Source: Alphaproteobacteria bacterium (GTDB taxonomy: Bacteria; Pseudomonadota; Alphaproteobacteria; Rs-D84). Taken from it: a stretch of DNA of 64,000 nucleotides. The DNA is taken from positions 3,498-67,497 of the forward strand of contig JAFUTJ010000007.1 of NCBI GenBank assembly GCA_017471445.1, in the 5' to 3' direction. The position numbers were made by a program, and so were the translations under genes. Under the pieces are notes generated by a model. That model was given only the letters and a program-made list of their open reading frames with translations, made no database searches and had not been told where the DNA came from. Shown piece after piece: positions 2,627 to 18,393 of this stretch (positions are counted from its first letter, which is position 1; each line of letters opens with the position of its first letter).

Positions 2627-5053
2627 ATGAAAAGACTTGTTGCAGTAATCAGTGGACTGTTGATTTTACCCGCTTTTGCAGAGGTTGCGCCGCTTTATTA
2701 CGATGCCGCCGAAACAGAATATATTGACGACGCAGACGTGGCCGACGTTGCAGACGACATGTTAAATTCGGATGTTGCGGATGAATCTGCACCTGCGATT
2801 GTGTCATCAAACGCGGCGACGCCGCGTACAACACGCGCAATTTCGCGCGTTGTGCCGACCGGTACGGCATCTGCAACGCAAAAATCCAATACATCACGCC
2901 GAACATCGGCAACCCGTGGTGTTACGTCACGCGTAACCGCGCGTACGGCGGCAACACGCGCAAATATCGCATCGCGCCCGGCGGCAACCAATGGTACCAC
3001 GGCGCGCACATCGTCACGCACAACAAATAATGGCACCGTTTCGACACGTAACACACCGGCATCGTCTGGCACACGTGCACGTGCATCAATTGTTCAGACG
3101 GACACCGTTAACACCAGTTTATATAACGGCACAGCCGGTCGGGTGGGATTGCGTACAAATGTTGGTGTTGCGTCGCGTGTACCAACAATTCGCGCGGCAA
3201 CTGCGGTTGCGACACCTGCGACAACGACGGTGGTAAATGCGGCCGATACCGCGGCAACAATGAACGAATTGGCCGAATTAACCGATTATTGCAAGGCGCA
3301 ATATACCGAATGCATGGACAATTTCTGTAACGTATTGGACGATAACCAGGGTCGGTGCAGTTGTTCTAAAAACCTGAAAAATTATGAAAAAACAGAAACC
3401 GCGTTAAAGGATGCAACGGCGGCATTGCAAGATGTTGCCGCACAAATTCAGTACATAGGCCTGAGTTCGAGCGAGGTTGAAACCCTGTTCGCCCAGACCG
3501 AAGCGGAATTAAAAATGTCCAATTCAACCGATAATTCCAAGATTAAAAATGATTTGGACAAGATTAAAAACATGATTGTTAATGTTAAATCTGGTACAAC
3601 GGGTGTATCGGATGCAAATACATTGGGAATTGACTTGTCCGGCCTGTTGGACTTTAACATCAGCAGTACTGGATTTGACCTGTCGTCGTTGTTTGGGGGC
3701 ACATCATCAAACACGTCCAGTATTACAAATCAACGTGGCGAAACGCTGTACAAGACGGCAACGGCCCGGTGCAAGGCATCTGTATTAAACACGTGCGCGA
3801 CCCAAGGTGTTGATATTTCAATTGTATCAAATGCATACGATATGGAAATTGACAAACAATGTATTGCGTATGAACGCAGTTTGACCGATGCAAATGACCA
3901 AATGTCGGCAACCGTGCGTAATGCAAAGACGGTTCTGCAAAAGGCGCGCCTGTTGGTGGCACAGAATAAAAATCAATATGACATGCGTGGTTGCATAAAC
4001 GCATTGGATGCGTGCATGCAAGATGACTATGTATGTGGTTCCGACTATGAAAACTGTCTAGACCCAACCGGCAAATATATCGTTAATGGCGCGGTGGTCA
4101 AGGGCAGTTTACCCGGCATCCCCGGCGGCGAATACGGCACGGCCGGTACGAATGGTGGTGTTTCGTCAAATGGCGGTGTGGCAATCATAAAGAATGGTGT
4201 CGGTTTTACAAATTCTGGACTGTATGCGACATGGGATTATGACAACACGTCAAAAAATGCATGGTCAAATGGTAACCTGGCAGATTATATTACCAGTACA
4301 ATTTCCAAAACGGCCAATTCGATTACAACACCGGCCAACATGACAGAATATCTGAAATCGAAAATCGGTTATGTTGATAAAGATAACAAGGTCCAGGGTA
4401 TGTGCGCATCGGTCCTGACCAAATGTCAAGATTACACGTATACCGGCACCGGCAACAGCCGCAAATACAACGATAGCAACGACGTTATTAAAAATTATCT
4501 GGAACGCGTTATGGTTCAGATCAAGGCAAAACAAGACGATGTTATTTCCGACTATGCCGAAGGTTGCATATCAGATGTTTCGTCGTGCCTGGCCCAGAAT
4601 AATTACAATTATTATTATTCTGCAACAACGTACAGTACGCTGACCAATTCTAACCCGTCGAACATCGCGATTCAGGCATGCATGTCTATAATCAACACAT
4701 GCAAAAGCGCGACAACGCCGTCGTCTGATGCATCAACGGTGTATCAATGGCTGGATTCCGCGCTGGGCACCACGCTGGACACCATCAAAGCCGCCTGTAC
4801 CGCAGCAAGCGATTCTAACGGTATTTATTTTCAAGGAACATGGTCAGACGGTGAATGCAAGTGCAAGACTGGTGGTACATACTATGATGCGGCGTCGTTC
4901 CGTTGCGTTAACAACTGCATGTATTCACCACAATACCCGAAAAATGTTACCTTGGGAAACGGTGACCGTAAATGTGGCGAATGTCCCGCTGGGGAAACCC
5001 CAACAAAGTCAGGAAGTGGTACACCGACGCAATATGAATGTAAAGCTTCATAA
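2627..5053 (+). CDS. large secreted cysteine-rich protein, family A (paralog of 16147..18393)
   Basis: Signal peptide MKRLVAVISGLLILPAFA with an AGGAAGGA SD. An acidic stretch is followed by a long Arg/Ser/Thr-rich low-complexity region. An ordered series of Cys motifs (CKAQYTECMDNFCNVLDDNQGRCSCS, DKQCIAYE, GCINALDACMQDDYVCGSDYENCLDPTGKY, GMCASVLTKCQDYTY) is shared with the paralog. Confidence 0.85.
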   Translation: MKRLVAVISGLLILPAFAEVAPLYYDAAETEYIDDADVADVADDMLNSDVADESAPAIVSSNAATPRTTRAISRVVPTGTASATQKSNTSRRTSATRGVTSRVTARTAATRANIASRPAATNGTTARTSSRTTNNGTVSTRNTPASSGTRARASIVQTDTVNTSLYNGTAGRVGLRTNVGVASRVPTIRAATAVATPATTTVVNAADTAATMNELAELTDYCKAQYTECMDNFCNVLDDNQGRCSCSKNLKNYEKTETALKDATAALQDVAAQIQYIGLSSSEVETLFAQTEAELKMSNSTDNSKIKNDLDKIKNMIVNVKSGTTGVSDANTLGIDLSGLLDFNISSTGFDLSSLFGGTSSNTSSITNQRGETLYKTATARCKASVLNTCATQGVDISIVSNAYDMEIDKQCIAYERSLTDANDQMSATVRNAKTVLQKARLLVAQNKNQYDMRGCINALDACMQDDYVCGSDYENCLDPTGKYIVNGAVVKGSLPGIPGGEYGTAGTNGGVSSNGGVAIIKNGVGFTNSGLYATWDYDNTSKNAWSNGNLADYITSTISKTANSITTPANMTEYLKSKIGYVDKDNKVQGMCASVLTKCQDYTYTGTGNSRKYNDSNDVIKNYLERVMVQIKAKQDDVISDYAEGCISDVSSCLAQNNYNYYYSATTYSTLTNSNPSNIAIQACMSIINTCKSATTPSSDASTVYQWLDSALGTTLDTIKAACTAASDSNGIYFQGTWSDGECKCKTGGTYYDAASFRCVNNCMYSPQYPKNVTLGNGDRKCGECPAGETPTKSGSGTPTQYECKAS

Positions 5054-7061: not shown

Positions 7062-7631
7062 ATGAGACACAATGTATCAGGTCGCACATTTAATCGCGAT
7101 ACAAATGCACGCAAGGCCCTGTTGATTGGCTTGGCGAAAAATTTAATTGAACGGGAACAGATTAAAACAACCTTGCCCAAGGCAAAAGACCTGCGCAGTG
7201 TTGTTGAAAAATTGATTACCCGTGCCAAGGTTGACAGTGTTGCAAACCGCCGCATCGTCGCCGCCGAATTGGGCAACAGTGGTGCCGCCACGGTAAAAAA
7301 ACTGTTTACCGTGTTGGGGCCACGTTATGCAAAACGCCCGGGCGGTTATACCCGCGTGTTAAAGGCCGGTTTCCGCTATGGCGATGCCGCACCAATGGCA
7401 ATAATTGAATTGGTTGACCGCGACGAAAGCGCGAAAAAGACGGTAAAAGCGGCAGAAGCCGCGGCACCGGTTGCAACAGATGCCGACACGGCGGAAAAGA
7501 CCACTGAAAAGAAACCTGCGGCAAAAAAAGCCGCCGCGCCCAAGGCAGAAAAAAAGCCGGCCACAAAAACGGCACGCGCAACAACTGCTAAAAAGGAAGT
7601 TTCGGTAAAACGTCGTTCAACCGGAAAATAA
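7062..7631 (+). CDS. rplQ: 50S ribosomal protein L17 with Ala/Lys-rich C-terminal tail
   Basis: [20 protein letters not shown]...GGYTRVLK is the L17 core, followed by an A/K/E-rich extension of about 60 aa. Confidence 0.95.
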
Positions 7632-7658
7632 AAAATTGCCCCGAACGGGGCATTTTTT
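7632..7658 (+). terminator. intrinsic terminator after rplQ
   Basis: TGCCCC-GAAC-GGGGCA followed by TTTTTT. Confidence 0.75.
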
Positions 7659-7999
7659 ATTGCGATAAAATTTTTAATCGCTGGTATGCCGATATTTGTT
7701 CTGATATTACCTTGATGTCGTGGCGATACTGCTGCGTTGGGATTGAACACCCATGGTAAGCGTCCGAATTACCGGACGATTTTGTCCCCGCCGGGAACGG
7801 TTGTGGGGGATGTGAATATATTGAATAAACATCGCAATTCTTACTATTGTGTTCAACCGCCAACCAGTACAATTTTGCGCAGGCGGGAATCTATTATTTT
7901 TGAATCATGGAATTTATTACGTATTAATTCCGGTAACTTGTATACAGTGGTTCCCCACCAGCGCGGGGGTGACGACATTCTACAACACCGGGCACAGTT

Positions 8000-8054
8000 C
8001 CAAAAATCATAAATCAGAAATCCGAAATCTACCAATCATCAAACCTGATTTATG
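8000..8054 (-). terminator. candidate terminator of ftsA-rpe ORF (10-bp perfect stem, large loop)
   Basis: CATAAATCAG (8008-8017) is the exact reverse complement of CTGATTTATG (8045-8054). On the minus-strand RNA the stem is followed by AUUUUUGG. The stem includes the stop codon. Confidence 0.45.
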
Positions 8055-9825
8055 CACTTGTTTTCCGCATCAGTCCACGTATGGCCAGGGGAAAATCATT
8101 TGCGCGTGCTAAATAAGACCCAGAAACCAGCAAATCGGCCCCAGCGTCCCAGCACATTTGTGCCGTTTTGTCATTTATTCCGCCATCAACAGATATTGTA
8201 AACCGCAACCCATACCGTTTGCGCGTCGCGGCCAGCACAGAAATTTTATGCAAACATTCGGGATTAAACGCCTGGCCGGCGGCACCGGGTGCAACGGTCA
8301 TAACCATAACTTCATCAACGTCGCGCAATACCGACTTTAATATTGAAACCGACGAATCCGGATGCAGTGCCACCCCAGCACGTACACCCGCCGCCCGAAT
8401 GTTATGCAGTGCGGTTCGCACCCCCGATGTGTTGGTTGAAACAATAATTGTATTTGCACCCGCGGCAATTGCGTCGTTTGCCCACACAACCGGCCCTTCG
8501 GTCATCAGGTGCACGTGCAGATGTGCGTCTGTGTGCGCGCGTATATATTTTAATTCATCAATCCCGCCGGCGATACGGTCGACATAGAATCCATCCATTA
8601 TATCAACGTGAACAATTGACACGCCACCAGATTGAAACAGTGAATATGTTTCATCACGCCGCATGTCAAAGCACAATGTGCTGGGCATAATGGGAATAAA
8701 TTCATTACGTTTACGGCGGCGGCGCGTAAATATGCCACGAATGCGCGACATATGTTTTTGCATGCGTTCACTGCGCGCGATATATGCGGCACGGTGTGCC
8801 CCTTCGGCCGCCCATATATATTCTGACAATGCACGTGTGGCCGCATCCGGCCCCATGTTTTCAACCGGTATTGCAAACATATTTTCAACCAGGTCCGCCA
8901 CACCGTCGCACCCACTTGCGCCGCCGGTAATGACAATACGCCGTGGTGCATATCGGCCAATTGCCGTCATTGCGGCGTTCTTTATTTGGCCAACAATATC
9001 AACAATGTTCGGTATCACAATATCGTTTATATCGCTGCGCGAAAAGTCATATGCCGTGTCCGCCGGGGTAAATCGGTCCATTTCTTTTGGAATCATGCTG
9101 GCCACGGTGCGCTTAATCCGTTCGGCATCGTCAAAACCGACATTCGTTTTTTCGGCAATTTCACGTGTGATGTTTGTTCCACCATGTGCATATTTATAGT
9201 GCCACACCGGTCCACGTTCGGACCAAATTGACACAGATGTAAATTCGGCACCAAAATCAATAATCATTTGCGTGCCATTTGCCGGGTATGATGCATTTAC
9301 TAAAAACATTGGGTCAAAGAACGCCGCCGGCTGAATATGCGCCCGTCGCAGGAATGCACCAATTTCATCCATACGTGATTGTTCATAAAAAATACCACCA
9401 AATACCGATGCCAATTTTCGTTCCACCACACCAATCGGCGTTGGCATATTTTTTGTCGTCGCCCCGTCATATCGCAATGGCACAATATGCATTGGGTAAA
9501 ATCCATCTGGCGGGGTTATTTGCGAAATCTGGGCCTTGATATCGGCGGGGGTAATTTTATGTTCGCCCGACCACAGTGTTTCGCGCCGCGTCATCGTAAA
9601 CCATGCGTTGCCAAAGTTCCCAGTAATATACGCCGTATCAAAGTGCGTGCCAATTTTATTTTCCAATTCATCAATTACCGACTTTAACGCGAAAACCGTA
9701 TCATAATTATCAACAGAATACATGGCCGATTTATCAATGCGCCCACTGCGCACGCGATGTGCAATGCCACGAACGCCGCTGGTTCCGATGTCCAGACACA
9801 AAAAAGATGAATCAAATAAATTCAT
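8050..9825 (-). CDS. ftsA: FtsA (cell-division actin homolog) fused in frame to ribulose-phosphate 3-epimerase
   Basis: The N-terminal ~375 aa are FtsA-like (LDIGTSGVRG..., ITGGASG...). They end in a basic amphipathic tail, IRGIFTRRRRKRNEF. After only IPI, an Rpe-like 212 aa follows from the ATG at 8688 (MPSTLCFD..VHVDIMDGFYV..HLHVHLM..VMTVAPGAAGQAF..ISVDGGIN..GADLLVSGSYL). The start at 9825 lies 1 nt after the ftsQ stop. Confidence 0.85.
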   Translation of the reverse strand: MNLFDSSFLCLDIGTSGVRGIAHRVRSGRIDKSAMYSVDNYDTVFALKSVIDELENKIGTHFDTAYITGNFGNAWFTMTRRETLWSGEHKITPADIKAQISQITPPDGFYPMHIVPLRYDGATTKNMPTPIGVVERKLASVFGGIFYEQSRMDEIGAFLRRAHIQPAAFFDPMFLVNASYPANGTQMIIDFGAEFTSVSIWSERGPVWHYKYAHGGTNITREIAEKTNVGFDDAERIKRTVASMIPKEMDRFTPADTAYDFSRSDINDIVIPNIVDIVGQIKNAAMTAIGRYAPRRIVITGGASGCDGVADLVENMFAIPVENMGPDAATRALSEYIWAAEGAHRAAYIARSERMQKHMSRIRGIFTRRRRKRNEFIPIMPSTLCFDMRRDETYSLFQSGGVSIVHVDIMDGFYVDRIAGGIDELKYIRAHTDAHLHVHLMTEGPVVWANDAIAAGANTIIVSTNTSGVRTALHNIRAAGVRAGVALHPDSSVSILKSVLRDVDEVMVMTVAPGAAGQAFNPECLHKISVLAATRKRYGLRFTISVDGGINDKTAQMCWDAGADLLVSGSYLARANDFPLAIRGLMRKTSA

Positions 9826-9826
9826 T

Positions 9827-10507
9827 TTAACGCACCAATATTCGCGCACTGTCGCGCATATCAATTACATTAATGTTTTTTGATAAAATCTTGTGATTTT
9901 GGTTCATTATTACCAACGCACCAATTGCCGCGGTTGGGTCATCTTCGGGTAACATAACGGTTATGCCGCCGGTTGTTGTCATGTTCCAACGCCGGTTTTC
10001 AATCCATTCCAGATAGTCAACATCGCCGGCCATACCGTGTGCCGCATTGGTTATTTCGGTTATATCGTCGGGAACATTTCCGCGGAATAATACCGCACCA
10101 TTATCACGAACATCGGTCGGGCGATTTACAATTGTGCCATCGGCCGACAATGGAAAGAAACTTTCGCCGTCGGTCCATTGTGCAACCGCACGATATAACT
10201 TTACCCGCACCGCCAGATTGCCATTTGGCATGCGTCGTACAGACGATTGCCGCACACCCGGCACCGCCGCCACACGTGCATTTACATCACGCAGTGCCAC
10301 CGAATACGTATGTGCACCCGGCGCAACGGTTGCCGCCGCCGCCAAGGCCGATAAATCTTTGTCATTAACATCCGCCGAAATTGATATATTGCGAACGCGC
10401 GCAACATCACCATGACCCAAGAATACCATAACAATGCGCACGGAAAAATACACCGCCAAAACAATGGCAAATATAAAATATAACCAAAACCGAACTGTAT
10501 GCTTCAT
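9827..10507 (-). CDS. ftsQ: cell division protein FtsQ
   Basis: One N-terminal TM helix, a POTRA-like region (VRNISI...) and an FtsQ-type C-terminal part. It sits immediately upstream of ftsA. Confidence 0.8.
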   Translation of the reverse strand: MKHTVRFWLYFIFAIVLAVYFSVRIVMVFLGHGDVARVRNISISADVNDKDLSALAAAATVAPGAHTYSVALRDVNARVAAVPGVRQSSVRRMPNGNLAVRVKLYRAVAQWTDGESFFPLSADGTIVNRPTDVRDNGAVLFRGNVPDDITEITNAAHGMAGDVDYLEWIENRRWNMTTTGGITVMLPEDDPTAAIGALVIMNQNHKILSKNINVIDMRDSARILVR

Positions 10508-10621
10508 ACCGTGTATTATATCATATACAAGCCGCGTCCGCTATATTTTGTTGAATTTTAACCATGGCAAAAACACGCGAATAAAAAAATACACCCCAAT
10601 TAAGTAAATAGATATTGTTCA

Positions 10622-10828
10622 CTAATTTGTTGGTACCAATTTTCCGCCGATGTCGCGTGTGGCGTTAATCCAACATGTTGCGCCATTACGCGGAACCGCC
10701 ATGGCGTATTTGGTGTGCTTTTCCGCATATATATTTATACCGTTCATTGCGGTTTCACCAATCCGGCACAGTGGCAAACACCGGTCGTCGGATGTGTGAC
10801 CGAACCCATCATCACATTCCCATGGGCA
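10622..10828 (-). repeat. conserved 3' cassette of family-B genes (copy 1)
   Basis: It shares long identical nucleotide runs with 29407-29613 (e.g. ccatggcgtatttggt, ccaatccggcacagtgg, cggtcgtcggatgtgtgacc, attcccatgggcaat). By manual count, 62 of 68 encoded residues are identical. Confidence 0.85.
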
Positions 10829-11446
10829 ATCGTTCGCATCAACAATTGTACCATCCACACTGTCTGGTGTGCCGGGGCCGGTATAGTGTGCATTTGCGGG
10901 TGCATTGGTGCATGGTTTAAACGCGTTATACGAGCTACTGCTCTGTCCATGATGTTGCGACAGATAATACCCAGCGTATGCCTTTGTATATAAACACGCA
11001 CTGTAATCGGCATAAGCCCCAACAGATTCCGAATAATAGAAACTTAGTGCATTTATTCTTGCTTCATCGCCATTAATACCACGAATAACAATGCCACACT
11101 TTTCGATATTTTTAGCGTTATAGGTGTGAGTAAACCATTCTGTAGAAACCATAACGGTCATTTCACTGTAATATGGGTTGGTAAGTAAAACATACGGCGA
11201 TATCATGTTTATAAGTTCTTGCCGGGTCATGTTAATTTCGGGACACGCATATTGCGCATCATCACCCGGACAATAATATGCCTCAGAACAGGCCGCGCAT
11301 TCACCGTTGTTCAACCAATACCCGGCGTTACATTGTGCGGCGCGGGCCGTGCCGACACCGCCAATCGTAATCAGTGCACAAATTGCTAACGCCAAATCAA
11401 CCGCACGGCAACGCATAATCGATTGAATATAAAAAAACAGATTCAT
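10622..11446 (-). CDS. secreted cysteine-rich protein, family B (paralog of 29407..30162)
   Basis: AGAGGGA SD before the ATG at 11446. Signal-like N-terminus ending GTARA. It has a CNAGYWLNNGECAACSEAYYCPGDD module and a C-terminal 68 aa nearly identical to the paralog. Confidence 0.8.
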   Translation of the reverse strand: MNLFFYIQSIMRCRAVDLALAICALITIGGVGTARAAQCNAGYWLNNGECAACSEAYYCPGDDAQYACPEINMTRQELINMISPYVLLTNPYYSEMTVMVSTEWFTHTYNAKNIEKCGIVIRGINGDEARINALSFYYSESVGAYADYSACLYTKAYAGYYLSQHHGQSSSSYNAFKPCTNAPANAHYTGPGTPDSVDGTIVDANDCPWECDDGFGHTSDDRCLPLCRIGETAMNGINIYAEKHTKYAMAVPRNGATCWINATRDIGGKLVPTN

Positions 11447-12512: not shown

Positions 12513-13055
12513 TTAAAATTTAACCTGTGGCGCGGCGCGTTCAGAATCATCAATCGTGAACAATTGTTCCGGCGTAATACCAAACATGCGTGCGATTATG
12601 TTTGACGGAAACTGCTCTATTTGTGTATTTAGCCCCATAACCACGGTATTATAGAATTGACGGGCGGCCTGAATTTTCGTTTCGGTGTCGGTCAATTCGC
12701 GCTGTAATTCCAAGAAATTATCATTCGCGCGCAGCGTCGGGTAACTTTCCGCCAGGGCAAAAATGCTCTTTAACGCGCCGGTTAATTTATTTTCGGCCGC
12801 ACCACGTGCATCGGCACCGGTCGCCGATATGGCCGCATTACGCGCAGAAATAACCGCATTCAATGTATCTTTTTCATGTGCCGCCGCACCACGTACCGTT
12901 TCCATTAAATTCGGTATCAGGTCGTAACGCCGCTTTAACTGCGTGTCAATGGTCGCCCACGCCTCGCGCACTTGGTTTCGGCGCGCAACCAAACCATTAT
13001 AAACCGCAACAACATACAATAATAAAACCGCAATGACGGCAATCGCTGTCCACAT
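12513..13055 (-). CDS. lemA: LemA family membrane protein
   Basis: MWTAIAVIAVLLLYVVAVYNGLVARRNQVREAWATIDTQLKRRYDLIPNL is the LemA signature. AAGGAG SD before the ATG at 13055. Confidence 0.85.
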   Translation of the reverse strand: MWTAIAVIAVLLLYVVAVYNGLVARRNQVREAWATIDTQLKRRYDLIPNLMETVRGAAAHEKDTLNAVISARNAAISATGADARGAAENKLTGALKSIFALAESYPTLRANDNFLELQRELTDTETKIQAARQFYNTVVMGLNTQIEQFPSNIIARMFGITPEQLFTIDDSERAAPQVKF

Positions 13056-13184
13056 GACAAAGGCTCCTTTTTTTGTGTCGGTTGAAATTTTACAACGCAA
13101 CAAACGCAAAATCAAATATAAAAGCAACGGTTATTTACGAACCAATCGCGATATACCAAAATGATTTCATAATTACAGCAGAAA

Positions 13185-13631
13185 TTACCCCAAAACCAAA
13201 TTCGGACGGGATTTGCGCAAATTAGCCAATGATTTTTCTTGGGCCATGCGAAATGCGGTTGGATTCCATATCTGAAAACCATTACCACGCCCAACGAACA
13301 TTACCGCATCATCAATATCCGCATGCCGCAACAAATCACCCGGTATAATAATGCGACCAGTACTGTCAAAATTCAGTGGCCGCGCATCTGCAAACAGCAT
13401 TGCCGTCAAATCATCCAATGTATCATCAAACACACCAATCTTGTCCGTCGCCGCCGCCATCGCCGTCATGCGCGCCATAGACAACCCTTCGATACAGTTA
13501 TTTGTGAACGAACGATACAAAACAACGCCCGCGAAACAATCGTCGGCAACCGCCGCACGAAACGCCGCCGGCACAGAAACACGTCCCTTGGCATCCAAAT
13601 GATTTTCATAAATTGACAGGAATAATCCCAT
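13185..13631 (-). CDS. mraZ: transcriptional regulator MraZ
   Basis: HLDAKGRVSVPAAFR and DSTGRIIIPGDL are the duplicated SpoVT/AbrB-like MraZ motifs. Confidence 0.9.
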   Translation of the reverse strand: MGLFLSIYENHLDAKGRVSVPAAFRAAVADDCFAGVVLYRSFTNNCIEGLSMARMTAMAAATDKIGVFDDTLDDLTAMLFADARPLNFDSTGRIIIPGDLLRHADIDDAVMFVGRGNGFQIWNPTAFRMAQEKSLANLRKSRPNLVLG

Positions 13632-13680: not shown

Positions 13681-13958
13681 TGACAAACAAATGTATTTTT
13701 ATGGGATTTTATGGTTTTTGTAAATAAAATTAAAATAATTAATTTTTTCGCTTGACCAGCGATTCGTTTTTGTTCTATGATTTCTGTATAGACAAGGGAA
13801 AAAGACAACAAAGTTCCAGGAATCTGATAAAAAACCGGATTTCTGGTAAAATAAAAAAGGAAACAAAAAATTAAACCGGCGTTTTGTAAATACAATATGT
13901 AAATACAAACTTTCGGCGCGATTTTTTCAACAAACCCATGAAAGGAGGGGACACACAC

Positions 13959-14294
13959 ATGCCAAAGAACATCAAAGAAATAATGATTGCACTGAACCAG
14001 GTTCTGACCACGACCGTTTGGGTCAATGGTGACCGCCAAATTGTATCATTACGCGACGAATTGCAAATCGGTAAAAATAATGCACCACGTTCAATCGAAG
14101 ATTTACCGCGTAATGCATTGGTTGGCGCATATGTGTCCTTGCAAATTCGTACCGATAATTTTGACGTTGCCGCCGAGGCATTAGACACACGGGCGTTGGC
14201 CATGCGTGTCAAAGAAATGGTCTTTGCCGAGGCGAAAAAAATCATGGATTCCGCCGAACGCGACAATTCCGCACATGTTGCGATGGCCGCGTAA
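13959..14294 (+). CDS. hypothetical protein (111 aa)
   Basis: Strong AAGGAGG SD before the ATG at 13959 and a terminator downstream. I recognise no family. Confidence 0.55.
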   Translation: MPKNIKEIMIALNQVLTTTVWVNGDRQIVSLRDELQIGKNNAPRSIEDLPRNALVGAYVSLQIRTDNFDVAAEALDTRALAMRVKEMVFAEAKKIMDSAERDNSAHVAMAA

Positions 14295-14356
14295 TAAACA
14301 TGTTTGCATGTTTTTGGCAACAAAATTCCGGACAACCCGGAAGGAAGGGAGTAAAT

Positions 14357-14389
14357 CACCGGCAAGTAATTGCCGGTGGTTTCGTTTCT
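14357..14389 (+). terminator. intrinsic terminator
   Basis: CACCGGCAA-GTAA-TTGCCGGTG (9-bp stem) followed by GTTTCGTTTCT. Confidence 0.65.
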
Positions 14390-14683: not shown

Positions 14684-14713
14684 TGCACAAAAAAACGGTG
14701 GTTTTTTGGTGCA
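14684..14713. repeat. inverted repeat, right copy (in predicted 5' UTR)
   Basis: TGCACAAAAAAACGGTGGTTTTTTGGTGCA matches 30 of 32 positions of the reverse complement of 14588-14619. Confidence 0.85.
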
Positions 14714-14732
14714 AACAATAAAAAGGATTAAA

Positions 14733-15899
14733 ATGTTAATGGAAGAAAAAATAACGATGCTAAAAAATCTGGTAGAATCAGCAAATCGGTATTTTTTATA
14801 TGTCGGCGAAAAAAGATACGAAACCAAAAACCTTGCAGAAAAAGGTATGGCGTATTTATGTAACGTATCACGACCCCAAAACAAAAGCGAAGCAGCACTA
14901 ATAATCGTTTCTGTAGCCAGTCTTGTGACGAAAGAATTAGCGTCCAGTCCTTATTTTAACCCTTTTGTGGACTGCATATTTATATTTTACTATTCCATAG
15001 TGGAAGCACTTAGCGATGACGAGAAAAAGGTTATTTTTGACATGCTGGCGCGTACGGGTTTTGTTGAGGCAGCAAAATCATACATCAACCCCAAACTGAC
15101 TGAACAATATAAATCCGATGCTTTTAGCAAACAATTTTCTTCATATAGATATTTAATCAAACAGCCTAATTTTTGGGATTTCTTGTCGCATTTTGATAAA
15201 AGTTTCGAGCCAGGAGCAAAAAGAGTACAGCAAGAAAAACAAAAACGCATTGACGCCCAAAAAAGATTTGACGAACGCGTTAATAATATCTTAGAAAGAA
15301 TGACGCAAAACATTATTGACAATCGCGGCAAGTGTTTCAACGTGCCTGAGCGTATTCAGATTGACGGCAAAAAATATTGGTTGAAAGATTTAACTAATTC
15401 ATTTGATAAAAGAACCTGGGCTAAATTTGTTGTGGCCGTAATAAAAGCACAGAATAACATTACCCGCGACAATCTTGATAGTTATGATAAACTTATCGAC
15501 TTTATTAGAGATATTAACCGGAGTAGAAAAGAATTATACTGTCCGGGCTACACAGGTGTTTTTACGGACCAAACACGTCGCAACGTATTAAAAATCCTGG
15601 GAATTAGCGAAGAAGAATTGACCGAAGAATATTATTACGGCAAGGACAGGGGACGCTATGATGAAGTTGAATACCTACTTACAAAATATGCATCATTTCT
15701 TAATATTTATTTACATTTGGGGTATGACAATGACTTAGAATACATACGTTTGTCATTAAACAAAAAGCTGGGCGGCGACAGTTATCGTAAATCACGAAGA
15801 AAAATTGCGGAAAAAATCGCCCCAAAAGAATTGTCAGAATCTCAAAAAAAGAAAGAACAAAAATGGGCAAACATACTGTTTGGACAAAAGGACAGATAA
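14733..15899 (+). CDS. hypothetical protein (388 aa), visibly AT-rich, Lys/Glu-rich
   Basis: Long clean ORF with AAAAGGA before the ATG at 14733. No signal peptide and no recognisable motif. A terminator lies downstream. Confidence 0.7.
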   Translation: MLMEEKITMLKNLVESANRYFLYVGEKRYETKNLAEKGMAYLCNVSRPQNKSEAALIIVSVASLVTKELASSPYFNPFVDCIFIFYYSIVEALSDDEKKVIFDMLARTGFVEAAKSYINPKLTEQYKSDAFSKQFSSYRYLIKQPNFWDFLSHFDKSFEPGAKRVQQEKQKRIDAQKRFDERVNNILERMTQNIIDNRGKCFNVPERIQIDGKKYWLKDLTNSFDKRTWAKFVVAVIKAQNNITRDNLDSYDKLIDFIRDINRSRKELYCPGYTGVFTDQTRRNVLKILGISEEELTEEYYYGKDRGRYDEVEYLLTKYASFLNIYLHLGYDNDLEYIRLSLNKKLGGDSYRKSRRKIAEKIAPKELSESQKKKEQKWANILFGQKDR

Positions 15900-15947: not shown

Positions 15948-16146
15948 GCAATTTTTTTAATCACAGGGAACAGATTTATTTCCGAAATCGGGTTTATAGT
16001 ACGGCGCAACGCTTTTTACACACGATGTGCCCCCCGACCTGCGCCGACAGTAAACGATAACGTCGTCGGGAAAAATTATAATTTATTTTTGCGATGTTTT
16101 ATAACTTTGTATCTGGGGCGAATTATGATATAATCACATGGTAATT

Positions 16147-18393
16147 ATGAAACGATTGGCCACATGTTTCTTTGCAATTTTGGTATGTGCACCGCATGTT
16201 TTTGCGGCGGATGTGCCGTCGCGTGTTGTTGCGTCGGGCGCGACAAATAATTCCACGGCGGCATCGTCACGGGCATCAACGGGACGCAGCATTAATATTG
16301 AACGGACGGCCCCAGACCCAGAACAACCGGTTACCACAACGCAATCGCGTACAGCATCGCGGGCGATTGCGGGCGCGACATTCGGCAATGGCACATCAAT
16401 TGGGCGTGACGTACAGTTGGGCATAACGACACCGGCACGCACGGTTTCAACACGTGTCGCGAATCAATCGGGCACAAATGTCCGCAGTGCATTAGATACA
16501 AAGGTTCCGCAATCCGGCCGAAATGCCCGGGTAAACGCCGCATCAATAAACGCAAGCCCAACCGTACGGCGGGCGGGCCTAACCCTGCGTCCCAGCACAG
16601 CCGAGGTTGGCGGCCGCGCCGTAATTGGTGACACCGGTGTTCAGACCGGTTCCAACATCGCATCAGAAATTCGTAATGTTTCGGCACGCGCCGCGGCCGC
16701 AACACCGACGCGTGAATCAATTGCCGCAGCCAAGGAACGATTGGAACAAACAGCCGAATTAAACAAATCTTGCCAAGACCAATATAATGAATGCATGGAC
16801 CAATTCTGTGCGGTTATTGATGCAAATCAAAAGCGGTGTTCGTGTTCGGGAAACCTGGCCAGATATACAAAGGTTGAAAATGCGGTCAAGGAAGCAAACA
16901 CAGAATTAAACGATGTGGCCCAGCGCATTCGGTATGTGGGTCTGTCGGCGGATGAAATTCGCGCAATTATGACCGCGACCGAGGCGGAAGAAACCCTGTC
17001 GTCCACAAAAGACACATCTGAAACGCGCAGCATGTTAGACGACATTGAAAAATTAATCAAAGACCCAACATCTTCGGCCAGTTATTATGCCGACACCAGC
17101 ACCAGTTTAGATTTAGATTTGGATTTCACATCGAACGACGTGTCTGATATGTTCAATTTGGATTTTTTAAGCAACGACAGCGGCAGTTTTTCCAACCTGC
17201 GCGGACGTGAATTATATAACGCGGCAAAAAAACGGTGTAATACCGTGTTGAATCAATGTAAAGAGGTTGGCGCAACATCAACCCAGATTACGGGTAATTA
17301 CGACCTGGCGATTGACAAGGATTGTATCGCGTATGAACAGGGCTTGACCAAGATGAACGAAACGTTGGTTAGCAATGTGCGCAGTGCAAATCGCATGTTG
17401 CAAAAGGCGCGTCTGGCCGTGATGCAGAATAAAAATCAATATGATGCCAAGGGTTGTGTTGCCGCGTTGGATACTTGCATGACCGACGATATGGTATGCG
17501 GTGGCGATTATTATAAATGTCTGGATCCGACCAAACGATATATTGATGAAAATGGCGAAGTTGTTTTGGGGCAAAATATTTCCGACATAACGGTGTTCAT
17601 GCAAAATTACAACAATGCATCAATTACCGCAGGAACATTAAGTGCGAATAACAACGTGTCTATCACAACAGATTTTTGTCGCGGGACCGGCAACGATGGA
17701 ACATGTAATGTAAAATACCTGATGACAAAAATCGGCACCGGTCAAAAGGTTACCGACAACGGCATGTGTCGCGCAGTTTTGGACAAGTGCCAACAATACA
17801 CATACGATTCCAACGGAAATTACAAACCGTTTAATGATATTGTTGTAAATTATGTTCAACGCGCCATGGTTAATATCAAGGCCGCCCAGCAAAGCATTAT
17901 TGCCGAATACGCATCAAAGTGCATTTCAGATATTGCCACATGTTATAACAAGCAAGTGTCCCAGGTTAACACATGGGCATCATCGGCATCGGTTAACGGT
18001 ATATATAATGTTATGACGGGTGCGTGCAGGAATGTTGCCCTAACCTGCTCTTATGCAGTGTTTGCGGCCGATGAAGACCTGTGTCCAAAGGATACGGCCG
18101 GCACAAGCCAGTCAACATGTCTGCAAAATATATCAGAAATGTTCTATCAATCATTGCTGTGCCCGGACAATTCAACGTACAGCGTTACCAGCAAAGCACA
18201 GTGCACGGCTACTACTGGTGCCTCTTGCAACGAATATGTTAACGACCGCTGTACATGTGACAAGGGGTATGTCAAATGGGGCAGTTCGTGCTTGATTAAA
18301 TGCGGAATAGATGCCAGTTATGATGCATATGGAACGTGCAAATGTAATGACACGACAAAAACCTATAACGCCGCAACGAGTACTTGCAGTTAA
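16147..18393 (+). CDS. large secreted cysteine-rich protein, family A (paralog of 2627..5053)
   Basis: Signal peptide MKRLATCFFAILVCAPHVFA and an S/T/R-rich region. Then CQDQYNECMDQFCAVIDANQKRCSCS, DKDCIAYE, GCVAALDTCMTDDMVCGGDYYKCLDPTKRY and GMCRAVLDKCQQYTY occur in the same order as in the paralog. Confidence 0.85.
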   Translation: MKRLATCFFAILVCAPHVFAADVPSRVVASGATNNSTAASSRASTGRSINIERTAPDPEQPVTTTQSRTASRAIAGATFGNGTSIGRDVQLGITTPARTVSTRVANQSGTNVRSALDTKVPQSGRNARVNAASINASPTVRRAGLTLRPSTAEVGGRAVIGDTGVQTGSNIASEIRNVSARAAAATPTRESIAAAKERLEQTAELNKSCQDQYNECMDQFCAVIDANQKRCSCSGNLARYTKVENAVKEANTELNDVAQRIRYVGLSADEIRAIMTATEAEETLSSTKDTSETRSMLDDIEKLIKDPTSSASYYADTSTSLDLDLDFTSNDVSDMFNLDFLSNDSGSFSNLRGRELYNAAKKRCNTVLNQCKEVGATSTQITGNYDLAIDKDCIAYEQGLTKMNETLVSNVRSANRMLQKARLAVMQNKNQYDAKGCVAALDTCMTDDMVCGGDYYKCLDPTKRYIDENGEVVLGQNISDITVFMQNYNNASITAGTLSANNNVSITTDFCRGTGNDGTCNVKYLMTKIGTGQKVTDNGMCRAVLDKCQQYTYDSNGNYKPFNDIVVNYVQRAMVNIKAAQQSIIAEYASKCISDIATCYNKQVSQVNTWASSASVNGIYNVMTGACRNVALTCSYAVFAADEDLCPKDTAGTSQSTCLQNISEMFYQSLLCPDNSTYSVTSKAQCTATTGASCNEYVNDRCTCDKGYVKWGSSCLIKCGIDASYDAYGTCKCNDTTKTYNAATSTCS

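Follow-up and report, generated by a model that had tools for sequence, protein, structure and literature searches.

In nearly all bacteria, FtsZ and FtsA are at the core of cell division. Several metabolic enzymes are known to regulate this machinery, such as UgtP in B. subtilis, OpgH in E. coli, and GdhZ and KidO in Caulobacter, and they act non-covalently on FtsZ. A number of bacteria have no FtsZ at all, namely Chlamydia, Wolbachia supergroup J, Planctomycetes, some Mollicutes and insect endosymbionts (PMC10591338, PMC4164004). Chlamydia and Wolbachia supergroup J are also devoid of ftsA (PMC10591338, Table 2). As the tabulated FtsZ-less lineages also lack ftsA, an FtsA without FtsZ is unusual. 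Here, a locus is described in which ftsA and the gene for ribulose-phosphate 3-epimerase (Rpe) form a single open reading frame (ORF), in a family without canonical FtsZ. It is located in a stretch of 64,000 nucleotides (the window: positions 3,498 to 67,497 of contig JAFUTJ010000007.1, assembly GCA_017471445.1) from an alphaproteobacterium of the order Rs-D84. The source assembly is a metagenome-assembled genome (MAG) of 0.91 Mb, 88% complete and divided over 23 contigs, with the window on contig C18. GTDB places Enterousia within this order, a lineage of reduced genomes (PMC12306168).

The N-terminal half of the predicted product shares with canonical FtsA (E. coli; Thermotoga maritima 1E4G/4A2A; Vibrio maritimus 7Q6F) the four-subdomain actin fold including 1C, intact ATP-binding motifs and a gene position 3' of ftsQ. 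An amphipathic/basic segment is found at the position of the membrane-targeting helix. However, this segment is internal in the fusion and continues into a 215-residue enzyme. The FtsA of the fusion is also about 45 residues shorter, due to deletions in 1A, 1C, 2B and 2A, it scores well under the equivalog cut-off, and its lineage has no polymerising FtsZ. The C-terminal half is 37-38% identical to canonical Rpe (S. pyogenes 2FLI; potato chloroplast 1RPX) and retains the His/Asp/His/Asp residues. In contrast to these enzymes, it has no N-terminus of its own, as strand 1 runs on from FtsA, and the phosphate-binding loop reads APGAAGQ instead of NPGFGGQ. As with UgtP, OpgH, GdhZ and KidO, a central-metabolism enzyme is physically tied to the division machinery. 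Whereas those enzymes bind non-covalently and to FtsZ, Rpe is here predicted to be joined covalently to FtsA.

The fusion ORF runs along the minus strand from an ATG at 9825 to a stop codon at 8050-8052 and comprises 591 uninterrupted codons, or 604 if counted from an upstream TTG. The FtsA tail ends in ...RRRRKRNEF (residue 376), and the junction reads ...MSRIRGIFTRRRRKRNEF(376)-IPI-M(380)PSTLCFD..., without a stop codon between the halves. The internal ATG, encoding Met380, is found at 8688-8686. In a preliminary description of this DNA, a single 591-codon ORF at 8050-9825 joining ftsA to rpe, with an ATG at 8688, had been recognised, which the ORF listing and the translation bear out. The description had also proposed that the FtsA part ends in a tail resembling a membrane-targeting helix and that a complete Rpe-like sequence follows only three codons (IPI) later. 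Both proposals stand: the tail segment aligns to the C-terminal helix of FtsA from sister families, and the Rpe-like sequence is recovered by Pfam, NCBIfam, the alignment with 2FLI and Foldseek. The predicted tryptic peptide spanning the junction of the product in the source genome is NEFIPIMPSTLCFDMR. On the upstream side, the ftsQ stop codon lies one base before the ftsA-rpe ATG, so that ftsQ and ftsA-rpe are tightly coupled.

In the N-terminal half, the Pfam family FtsA (PF14450) matches residues 188-327 with 41.1 bits (cut-off 31.8). The fusion was modelled by AlphaFold2 (AF2) with a predicted local distance difference test score (pLDDT) of 90.6 and a predicted template modelling score (pTM) of 0.60. 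When the N-terminal part was compared by Foldseek, the best matches were all FtsA, with template modelling (TM) scores of 0.66-0.74 over about 380 columns (0.72-0.74 for 1e4g, 7q6f and 4a2a), while PilM reached 0.53. The FtsA-specific 1C subdomain is present within the actin-like fold in both the model and the structural matches. Residues D12, G14, D190, G301 and G302, which belong to the phosphate 1, phosphate 2 and adenosine motifs, do not vary among 79 sequences. The ratio of nonsynonymous to synonymous substitution rates (dN/dS), calculated from 112 pairs of 80-98.5% identity, is 0.064 for the FtsA core, where the mean identity within the genus is 63%. The N-terminal half is a divergent but complete FtsA actin fold. 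The tail (residues 341-376) is predicted to form a helix at 342-366, followed by residues 368-373 with low pLDDT that are predicted to be disordered. In this tail the dN/dS is 0.21 and the mean identity within the genus 38%. Instead of ending the protein, the membrane-targeting segment is followed by a basic linker and then by Rpe.

In the C-terminal half, Pfam Rpe (PF00834) matches residues 380-572 with 153.7 bits (cut-off 21.1). The NCBIfam model NF004076 (rpe) gives 177.3 bits, above its cut-off of 165, and the Rpe equivalog TIGR01163 gives 158 bits, below its cut-off of 212.6. The best crystallographic match, 2FLI, is found with an E value of 6e-42 in an alignment that begins at residue 3 of IPIMPS, and Foldseek superimposes the C-terminal part on it with a TM score of 0.92 and a root-mean-square deviation of 1.4 Å. 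In the AF2 model, strand 1 of Rpe is located at 379-382, the IPIMPS strand beginning directly past the tail. The invariant residues H406, D408, H439 and D547 align to H34, D36, H67 and D176 of 2FLI, the metal-binding and catalytic residues of Rpe. Judged by these residues, the Rpe half is predicted to be a catalytically intact epimerase. Its dN/dS is 0.057, with a mean identity within the genus of 77%, and both halves are hence under strong purifying selection (dN/dS about 0.06). The source genome yields a single ftsA/rpe match, the sole rpe and the sole ftsA found in it. According to a published metabolic reconstruction, the non-oxidative steps of the pentose-phosphate pathway are present in Rs-D84 (PMC12306168).

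The fusion is not restricted to one assembly. Related loci come from human and animal gut MAGs, with Candidatus Enterousia among them. A full-length match (residues 1 to about 589, 47-67% identity) was obtained in 24 of the 25 genomes of the same genus, and the junction is open in each of the 93 extracted loci, some of which are redundant between searches. Among the 328 genomes of the order that were searched, all 18 genera of the family carry a single frame spanning residues 1 to about 588, with identities down to 29-31%. The few family genomes without a match, or with a frame broken at a contig end, are incomplete MAGs. In the five other families of the order two separate matches were found, for ftsA and for rpe. 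Public collections contain hundreds of fusion proteins of about 590 residues which, where named, are only called ribulose-phosphate 3-epimerase. When cluster representatives of 1.84 billion proteins were searched, some 20 clusters of full-length fusions ranked ahead of plain Rpe of 210-230 residues, and the best 150 of these representatives include no independent FtsA-Rpe fusion from outside the family. In a literature search no publication was found to mention a fusion of FtsA with Rpe, or an FtsZ of Enterousia or Rs-D84, and FtsA, FtsZ and cell division are not mentioned in the paper analysing Rs-D84 genomes (PMC12306168). Split genes were at one point suspected from "1 TAA" flags in three genomes (G020, G018 and G011), but the flag denotes the terminal stop codon.

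The preliminary description had left open whether the read-through stems from faulty assembly or base calling. That the source is a MAG of 23 contigs and 88% completeness would fit such an error. However, the same frame is present in more than 300 independently assembled genomes, among them the closed or single-contig genomes OZ007020.1, G252 and G297, which excludes this alternative. Hundreds of public protein clusters carry the fusion as well, and purifying selection spans the junction. In addition, Logan contigs from four gut-metagenome runs are identical to the window over 8300-9100, without any indel and with a word depth of 25-104 in three of them, a support at the level of contigs rather than reads. 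An artefact is thus exceedingly improbable: the fusion is real, family-wide and ancient.

The origin of the fusion can be approached from the sister families, as had been suggested in the preliminary description. There, the order ftsQ-ftsA-rpe is kept with ftsA and rpe abutting but separate, and the two genes overlap by 17 nt in G025 and by 1 nt in G029 and G032. The stop codon is absent throughout the family with the fusion. The last element of the sister FtsA is a typical amphipathic helix (...KVKKWIDDNF, ...HRWIKEYL or ...NWIKEHL), which aligns to the W-I-x-K-I-F core of the fusion tail. In the fusion, the terminal DNF or EYL is replaced by a basic stretch, RKPKKxxRF, followed by the Rpe strand IPI(M/L)PS. 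A basal genus of the family, g22, still reads ...QIKNWFEKHL-TPKNKIRLIKN-PVMPSTL. Given that ftsA terminates in the sister families only after rpe has begun, the loss of a stop codon would explain the fusion, and stop loss in a translationally coupled pair is supported as its simplest origin. The comparison supports the first of the alternatives raised earlier, a true FtsA-Rpe fusion created by a lost stop, with the membrane-targeting segment now internal. The ancestor of the order would have possessed an ftsQ-ftsA-rpe operon with such an overlap between the stop of ftsA and the start of rpe. One family (Candidatus Enterousia and 17 further genera) would then have lost the stop in its common ancestor, the genes remaining fused ever since. 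A different arrangement is seen in family f3, where ftsA and rpe are separated by an inserted ORF of about 600 residues whose product ends in a basic amphipathic tail, ...ENRALFRRIFRKKD (L106:4493-6295, L107:4630-6411).

An open frame may also hide two overlapping or contiguous genes, with Rpe made mainly from the internal ATG at 8688 and the long fusion as a minor product. The codon at this position is indeed ATG in the source genome and ATG or TTG in 63 of the 93 loci, and genes of the source genome commonly begin without a Shine-Dalgarno motif. The full distribution argues differently: next to 36 ATG and 27 TTG codons, TTA (25), CTG (3) and GCA (2) are found, and distant genera encode Ile, Gln or Tyr at the position of Met380. 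The 30 loci with TTA, CTG or GCA rule out separate initiation at the internal ATG, considered in the preliminary description, as a conserved mode of expression. As the internal ATG is not conserved, Rpe would be made as part of the fusion. Since 2FLI aligns from residue 3 of IPIMPS, no alternative start yields the whole barrel, and the next conserved Met, M388, lies past strand 1 as well as P381 and S382 and would thus give a truncated barrel. Furthermore, neither a minus-strand promoter-like site nor a terminator was found near the junction, and a stop codon has been regained in no genome of the family. A mainly separate Rpe is therefore highly unlikely. An argument from the Shine-Dalgarno motif was dropped. 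The motif is absent from the internal site in all 93 loci, but its absence there is uninformative, as the real ORF start lacks one in all 93 as well.

The absence of ftsZ, remarked on in the preliminary description, extends to the whole family (0/71 genome searches). Canonical ftsZ (TIGR00065) was detected in 0 of 25 genomes of the genus, in 0 of 4 further family genomes, including the closed chromosome OZ007020.1, and in 0 of 42 genomes of the other 17 genera, whereas 15 of 16 genomes of sister families contain it. The family is thus without canonical FtsZ. In the source assembly no ftsZ was found by TIGR00065 or by tblastn with ftsZ of the same order. The idea that a strongly diverged FtsZ is concealed in this genome was rejected as well, the best E value being 0.12 when 3469 source-genome ORFs of at least 80 residues were searched by hmmsearch --max. 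It is correct that ftsZ is missing beside ftsA. However, the absence from that spot cannot be tied to the fusion, as relatives with ftsZ also keep it elsewhere. The missing neighbour is therefore ancestral and separate from the fusion event. In the sister family represented by L129 (G027:C18:45500-48800), a degenerate FtsZ-like protein of 422 residues was observed (31 bits to TIGR00065), in which the GTP-binding loop GGGTGTG has been replaced by LGSVGEY. It may represent a second, independent FtsZ decay within the order.

Other components of the divisome have been retained. MreB is present in all 25 genomes of the genus (476 bits). Two SEDS proteins are encoded, the best FtsW match in mraY-ftsW-murG and RodA in mreC-mreD-mrdA-rodA, and the second class B penicillin-binding protein (PBP) matches best to FtsI-type models. 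ZapA and FtsQ are kept too. The family thus resembles other FtsZ-less bacteria in having no canonical FtsZ while keeping MreB, RodA and PBP2, which points to division driven by MreB and peptidoglycan synthases. Contrary to Chlamydia and Wolbachia supergroup J, which have no ftsA, it possesses FtsA, FtsQ, FtsW, an FtsI-like PBP and ZapA, and its ftsZ locus is still occupied by a gene whose product has an FtsZ-type tail. The Rs-D84 family is gut-associated, known from MAGs only and without known intracellular symbiosis (PMC12306168). The division and cell wall (dcw) cluster is scattered in the source genome: mraY-ftsW-murG (without murD in between) and the FtsI-like PBP are located on contig C14, and mraZ (PF02381) stands alone in the window (12516-13631, minus strand), followed by lemA (PF04011) rather than by rsmH-ftsL-ftsI.

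The protein with the FtsZ-type tail is acidic and disordered and is encoded beside zauP/zapA, outside the window. By sequence search it was found in 24 of 25 genomes of the genus and in 0 of 16 outgroup genomes. It starts with a conserved piece of 45 residues, MKTKIIYISGNEVFDMADIRAAFEEVR..L.L..DTVLFGVPVD, continues with a variable acidic linker and has the C-terminus ...KIGKLKNILPFKKAKRDD.GLMGDLFGWAGIAANDEDFSIPGFFT.AASKK. The consensus of its tail is ...DEDFSIPGFFT in the genus. In the basal genus g22 the tail reads ...DSFDLPKFLRP, and the homologue there ends in ...GLLDLIDQADDDVDSFDLPKFLRPGAV, a canonical FtsZ tail. This type of C-terminal peptide (D/E-I/L-P-x-F-L/F) is unique among the real ORFs of the genome; another match, "EIPAFL", belongs to a spurious ORF. 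The N-terminal piece was made into a profile and compared with 3482 sequences (all source-genome ORFs and 13 outgroup FtsZ). FtsZ proteins of three families took the first three ranks, all aligned at the last strand-helix-strand before the linker (277-319 in G025, E 0.005; 265-302 in G028, E 0.02; 253-287 in G032, E 0.16). Comparison of the piece with the same FtsZ region by hhalign gave a P value of 6.6e-5, and tblastn with five outgroup FtsZ placed its matches at the same spot.

Gene order provides a further link. In a basal genus, the acidic-protein gene occupies the position syntenic with ftsZ of the sister families. In G311, a gene for a membrane-anchored wall hydrolase comes next to it on the 3' side, and then a portal-like gene. 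The hydrolase is homologous to the gene found directly 3' of ftsZ in G032 and directly 3' of the acidic-protein gene in the source genome. The portal-like gene shares 42% identity with the one found 3' of ftsZ in G032, G040 and G028. In keeping with a truncation, no GTPase remnant was found upstream of the acidic-protein gene. Other searches gave no match. No tubulin-like GTPase domain was detected in the protein by TIGR00065 or Pfam, and the GGGTG(S/T)G signature is absent from all real ORFs of the source genome. The N-terminal piece has no Pfam match, PDB-sequence profile searches returned unrelated beta-alpha-beta proteins on top, and the N-terminal profile gave noise only when run against 19 outgroup genomes in six frames. 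Hidden Markov models (HMMs) of the C-terminal 62 or 22 residues did not match FtsZ sequences, nor did an FtsZ-tail HMM retrieve the acidic protein from the source proteome. It is likely that the acidic protein is a truncated ftsZ product, a "headless FtsZ" consisting of the last strand-helix-strand, the linker and the C-terminal peptide. Its FtsZ-type peptide would explain why FtsA has been retained.

The gene 3' of ftsZ or of its putative remnant (L160:2661-3725, L174:5157-6305, G000:C19:131843-132886) encodes a membrane-anchored protein with a homologous N-terminal anchor. The C-terminal wall-hydrolase domain differs, being GH108 with PG_binding_3 in G311, VgrG3-like in G032 and a WRNNNPGN domain without assignment in Enterousia. 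The phage portal-like gene comes next, directly or after 1-2 short genes, in G311 (L160:4225-5625, PF12236), G032, G040 and G028.

From all of the above, the locus very probably encodes a genuine bifunctional single chain with a predicted mass of 66 kDa, composed of the FtsA ATPase, the internal former membrane-targeting segment and Rpe. This chain would supply the only FtsA and the only Rpe of the cell. The FtsA module would still be held on the membrane by the internal amphipathic/basic segment and work together with FtsQ, FtsW, the FtsI-like PBP and ZapA, possibly also with the FtsZ-type tail of the acidic protein. The Rpe barrel would still feed the non-oxidative pentose-phosphate pathway. 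Several points weigh against this picture. Both the 66-kDa product and its two activities are predictions. The NCBIfam equivalog TIGR01174 (ftsA) matches residues 27-326 with 59.4 bits, far below its cut-off of 175.85, and the module lacks about 11, 5, 10 and 14 residues of 1A, 1C, 2B and 2A, respectively, that are present in sister FtsA. Given the low equivalog score and deletions that include subdomain 2B, the partner set of FtsA may have changed. It is through 2B that FtsA binds the C-terminal peptide of FtsZ, for which the tail of the acidic protein is a candidate. Membrane binding by an internal amphipathic segment is likewise a prediction. Additional initiation of free Rpe may occur at the internal codon in the 63 loci with ATG or TTG, the source genome included. 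Finally, the association between the fusion and the change in ftsZ could be a coincidence. As both fall on one shared branch, the association amounts to one evolutionary event and is a hypothesis, not a replicated correlation.

Whether the single chain brings an advantage is a separate matter. Rpe enzymes are obligate dimers or hexamers. An oligomeric Rpe behind the membrane anchor could make FtsA multivalent, or its assembly responsive to pentose phosphates, and so partly replace the FtsZ scaffold. Fusion and absence of canonical FtsZ coincide fully in their distribution (18/18 genera of the family compared to 0/5 sister families), although this reflects a single phylogenetic event. No reversion has occurred in more than 300 genomes, even though one nonsense mutation before an existing ATG would suffice in 36 of the 93 loci. 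The linker is short, with strand 1 of Rpe only 1-3 residues past the tail, and the best-matching Rpe crystal entries are many-chained (12 chains in 2FLI). However, the pTM of 0.60 comes without confidently predicted packing between the domains, and the oligomeric state of the fusion is assumed from other Rpe. Fusions of adjacent genes are moreover common in reduced genomes and can persist neutrally. An adaptive fusion is regarded as rather unlikely. A more far-reaching idea, that cytokinesis in the family has abandoned the FtsZ polymer, is doubtful. In that case ftsZ would have been reduced to a disordered, non-polymerising protein, while a multivalent FtsA-Rpe would be the scaffold organising FtsQ, FtsW, FtsI, ZapA and MreB. 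If true, the fusion and the FtsZ truncation would be the two halves of one divisome rewiring.

The features of the locus are collected in Table 1. The unassigned DNA that had been described behind the fusion ORF measures about 400 bp, has no Rfam match and ends in a bidirectional hairpin; no Rfam family was matched across 7400-10700. One copy of a Cys-rich secreted protein family is located between ftsQ and rpsD. Members of this family, which has no Pfam match, are encoded at 10622-11446 (minus strand) of the window, elsewhere in the genome (G000:C14:18793-19620, C3:36688-37689, C3:37755-38558) and also at L106:7966-8685. Their N-terminal parts vary, whereas the last 70 or so residues are near-identical (...CTNAPANAHYTGPG...CPWECDDGFGHTSDDRCLPLCRIGETAMNGINIYAEKHTKYAMAVPR...). 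Three sizeable ORFs of the window have no Pfam match at E <= 0.001, namely 13874-14365 (minus strand), 14706-15896 (plus strand) and 16138-18390 (plus strand, 751 residues).

Table 1. Coordinates of the ftsA-rpe fusion, its neighbours and the candidate FtsZ remnant; positions refer to the window unless a contig or locus is given.
Feature	Position	Strand	Description and evidence
ftsA-rpe fusion ORF	8050..9825	-	591 codons + stop 8050-8052; ORF call, Pfam, NCBIfam, family-wide open frame
FtsA actin-fold module, residues 1-340	8806..9825	-	AF2, Foldseek, invariant columns, dN/dS 0.064
Former FtsA C-terminal region, residues 341-376	8698..8805	-	Ends in amphipathic/basic MSRIRGIFTRRRRKRNEF; AF2, sister-FtsA alignment, dN/dS 0.21
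Rpe (beta/alpha)8 barrel, residues 377-591	8053..8697	-	PF00834, NF004076, 2FLI, Foldseek, dN/dS 0.057
ftsQ, 226 residues	9827..10507	-	Pfam FtsQ_DivIB_C PF03799, E 6.9e-9, above cut-off
Bidirectional GC-rich hairpin, probable shared terminator	7637..7652	.	T runs on both strands; between convergent rplQ and ftsA-rpe
Acidic disordered protein, 345 residues	G000:C19:130799-131833 (= L130:1501-2535)		Outside the window, beside zauP/zapA
Basal-genus homologue of the acidic protein	L160:1339-2664

In this abundant family of gut alphaproteobacteria, FtsA is under strong selection and has been welded to an enzyme of central metabolism throughout the history of the family. At the same time, the family appears to have cut FtsZ down to its FtsA-binding tail. 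The public name "ribulose-phosphate 3-epimerase", carried by proteins of 592 residues, conceals what would be the only FtsA of the cell. The family offers a natural experiment on the role of FtsA without an FtsZ polymer and on the need for a terminal membrane-targeting helix, and the fusion would tie the divisome covalently to pentose-phosphate metabolism.

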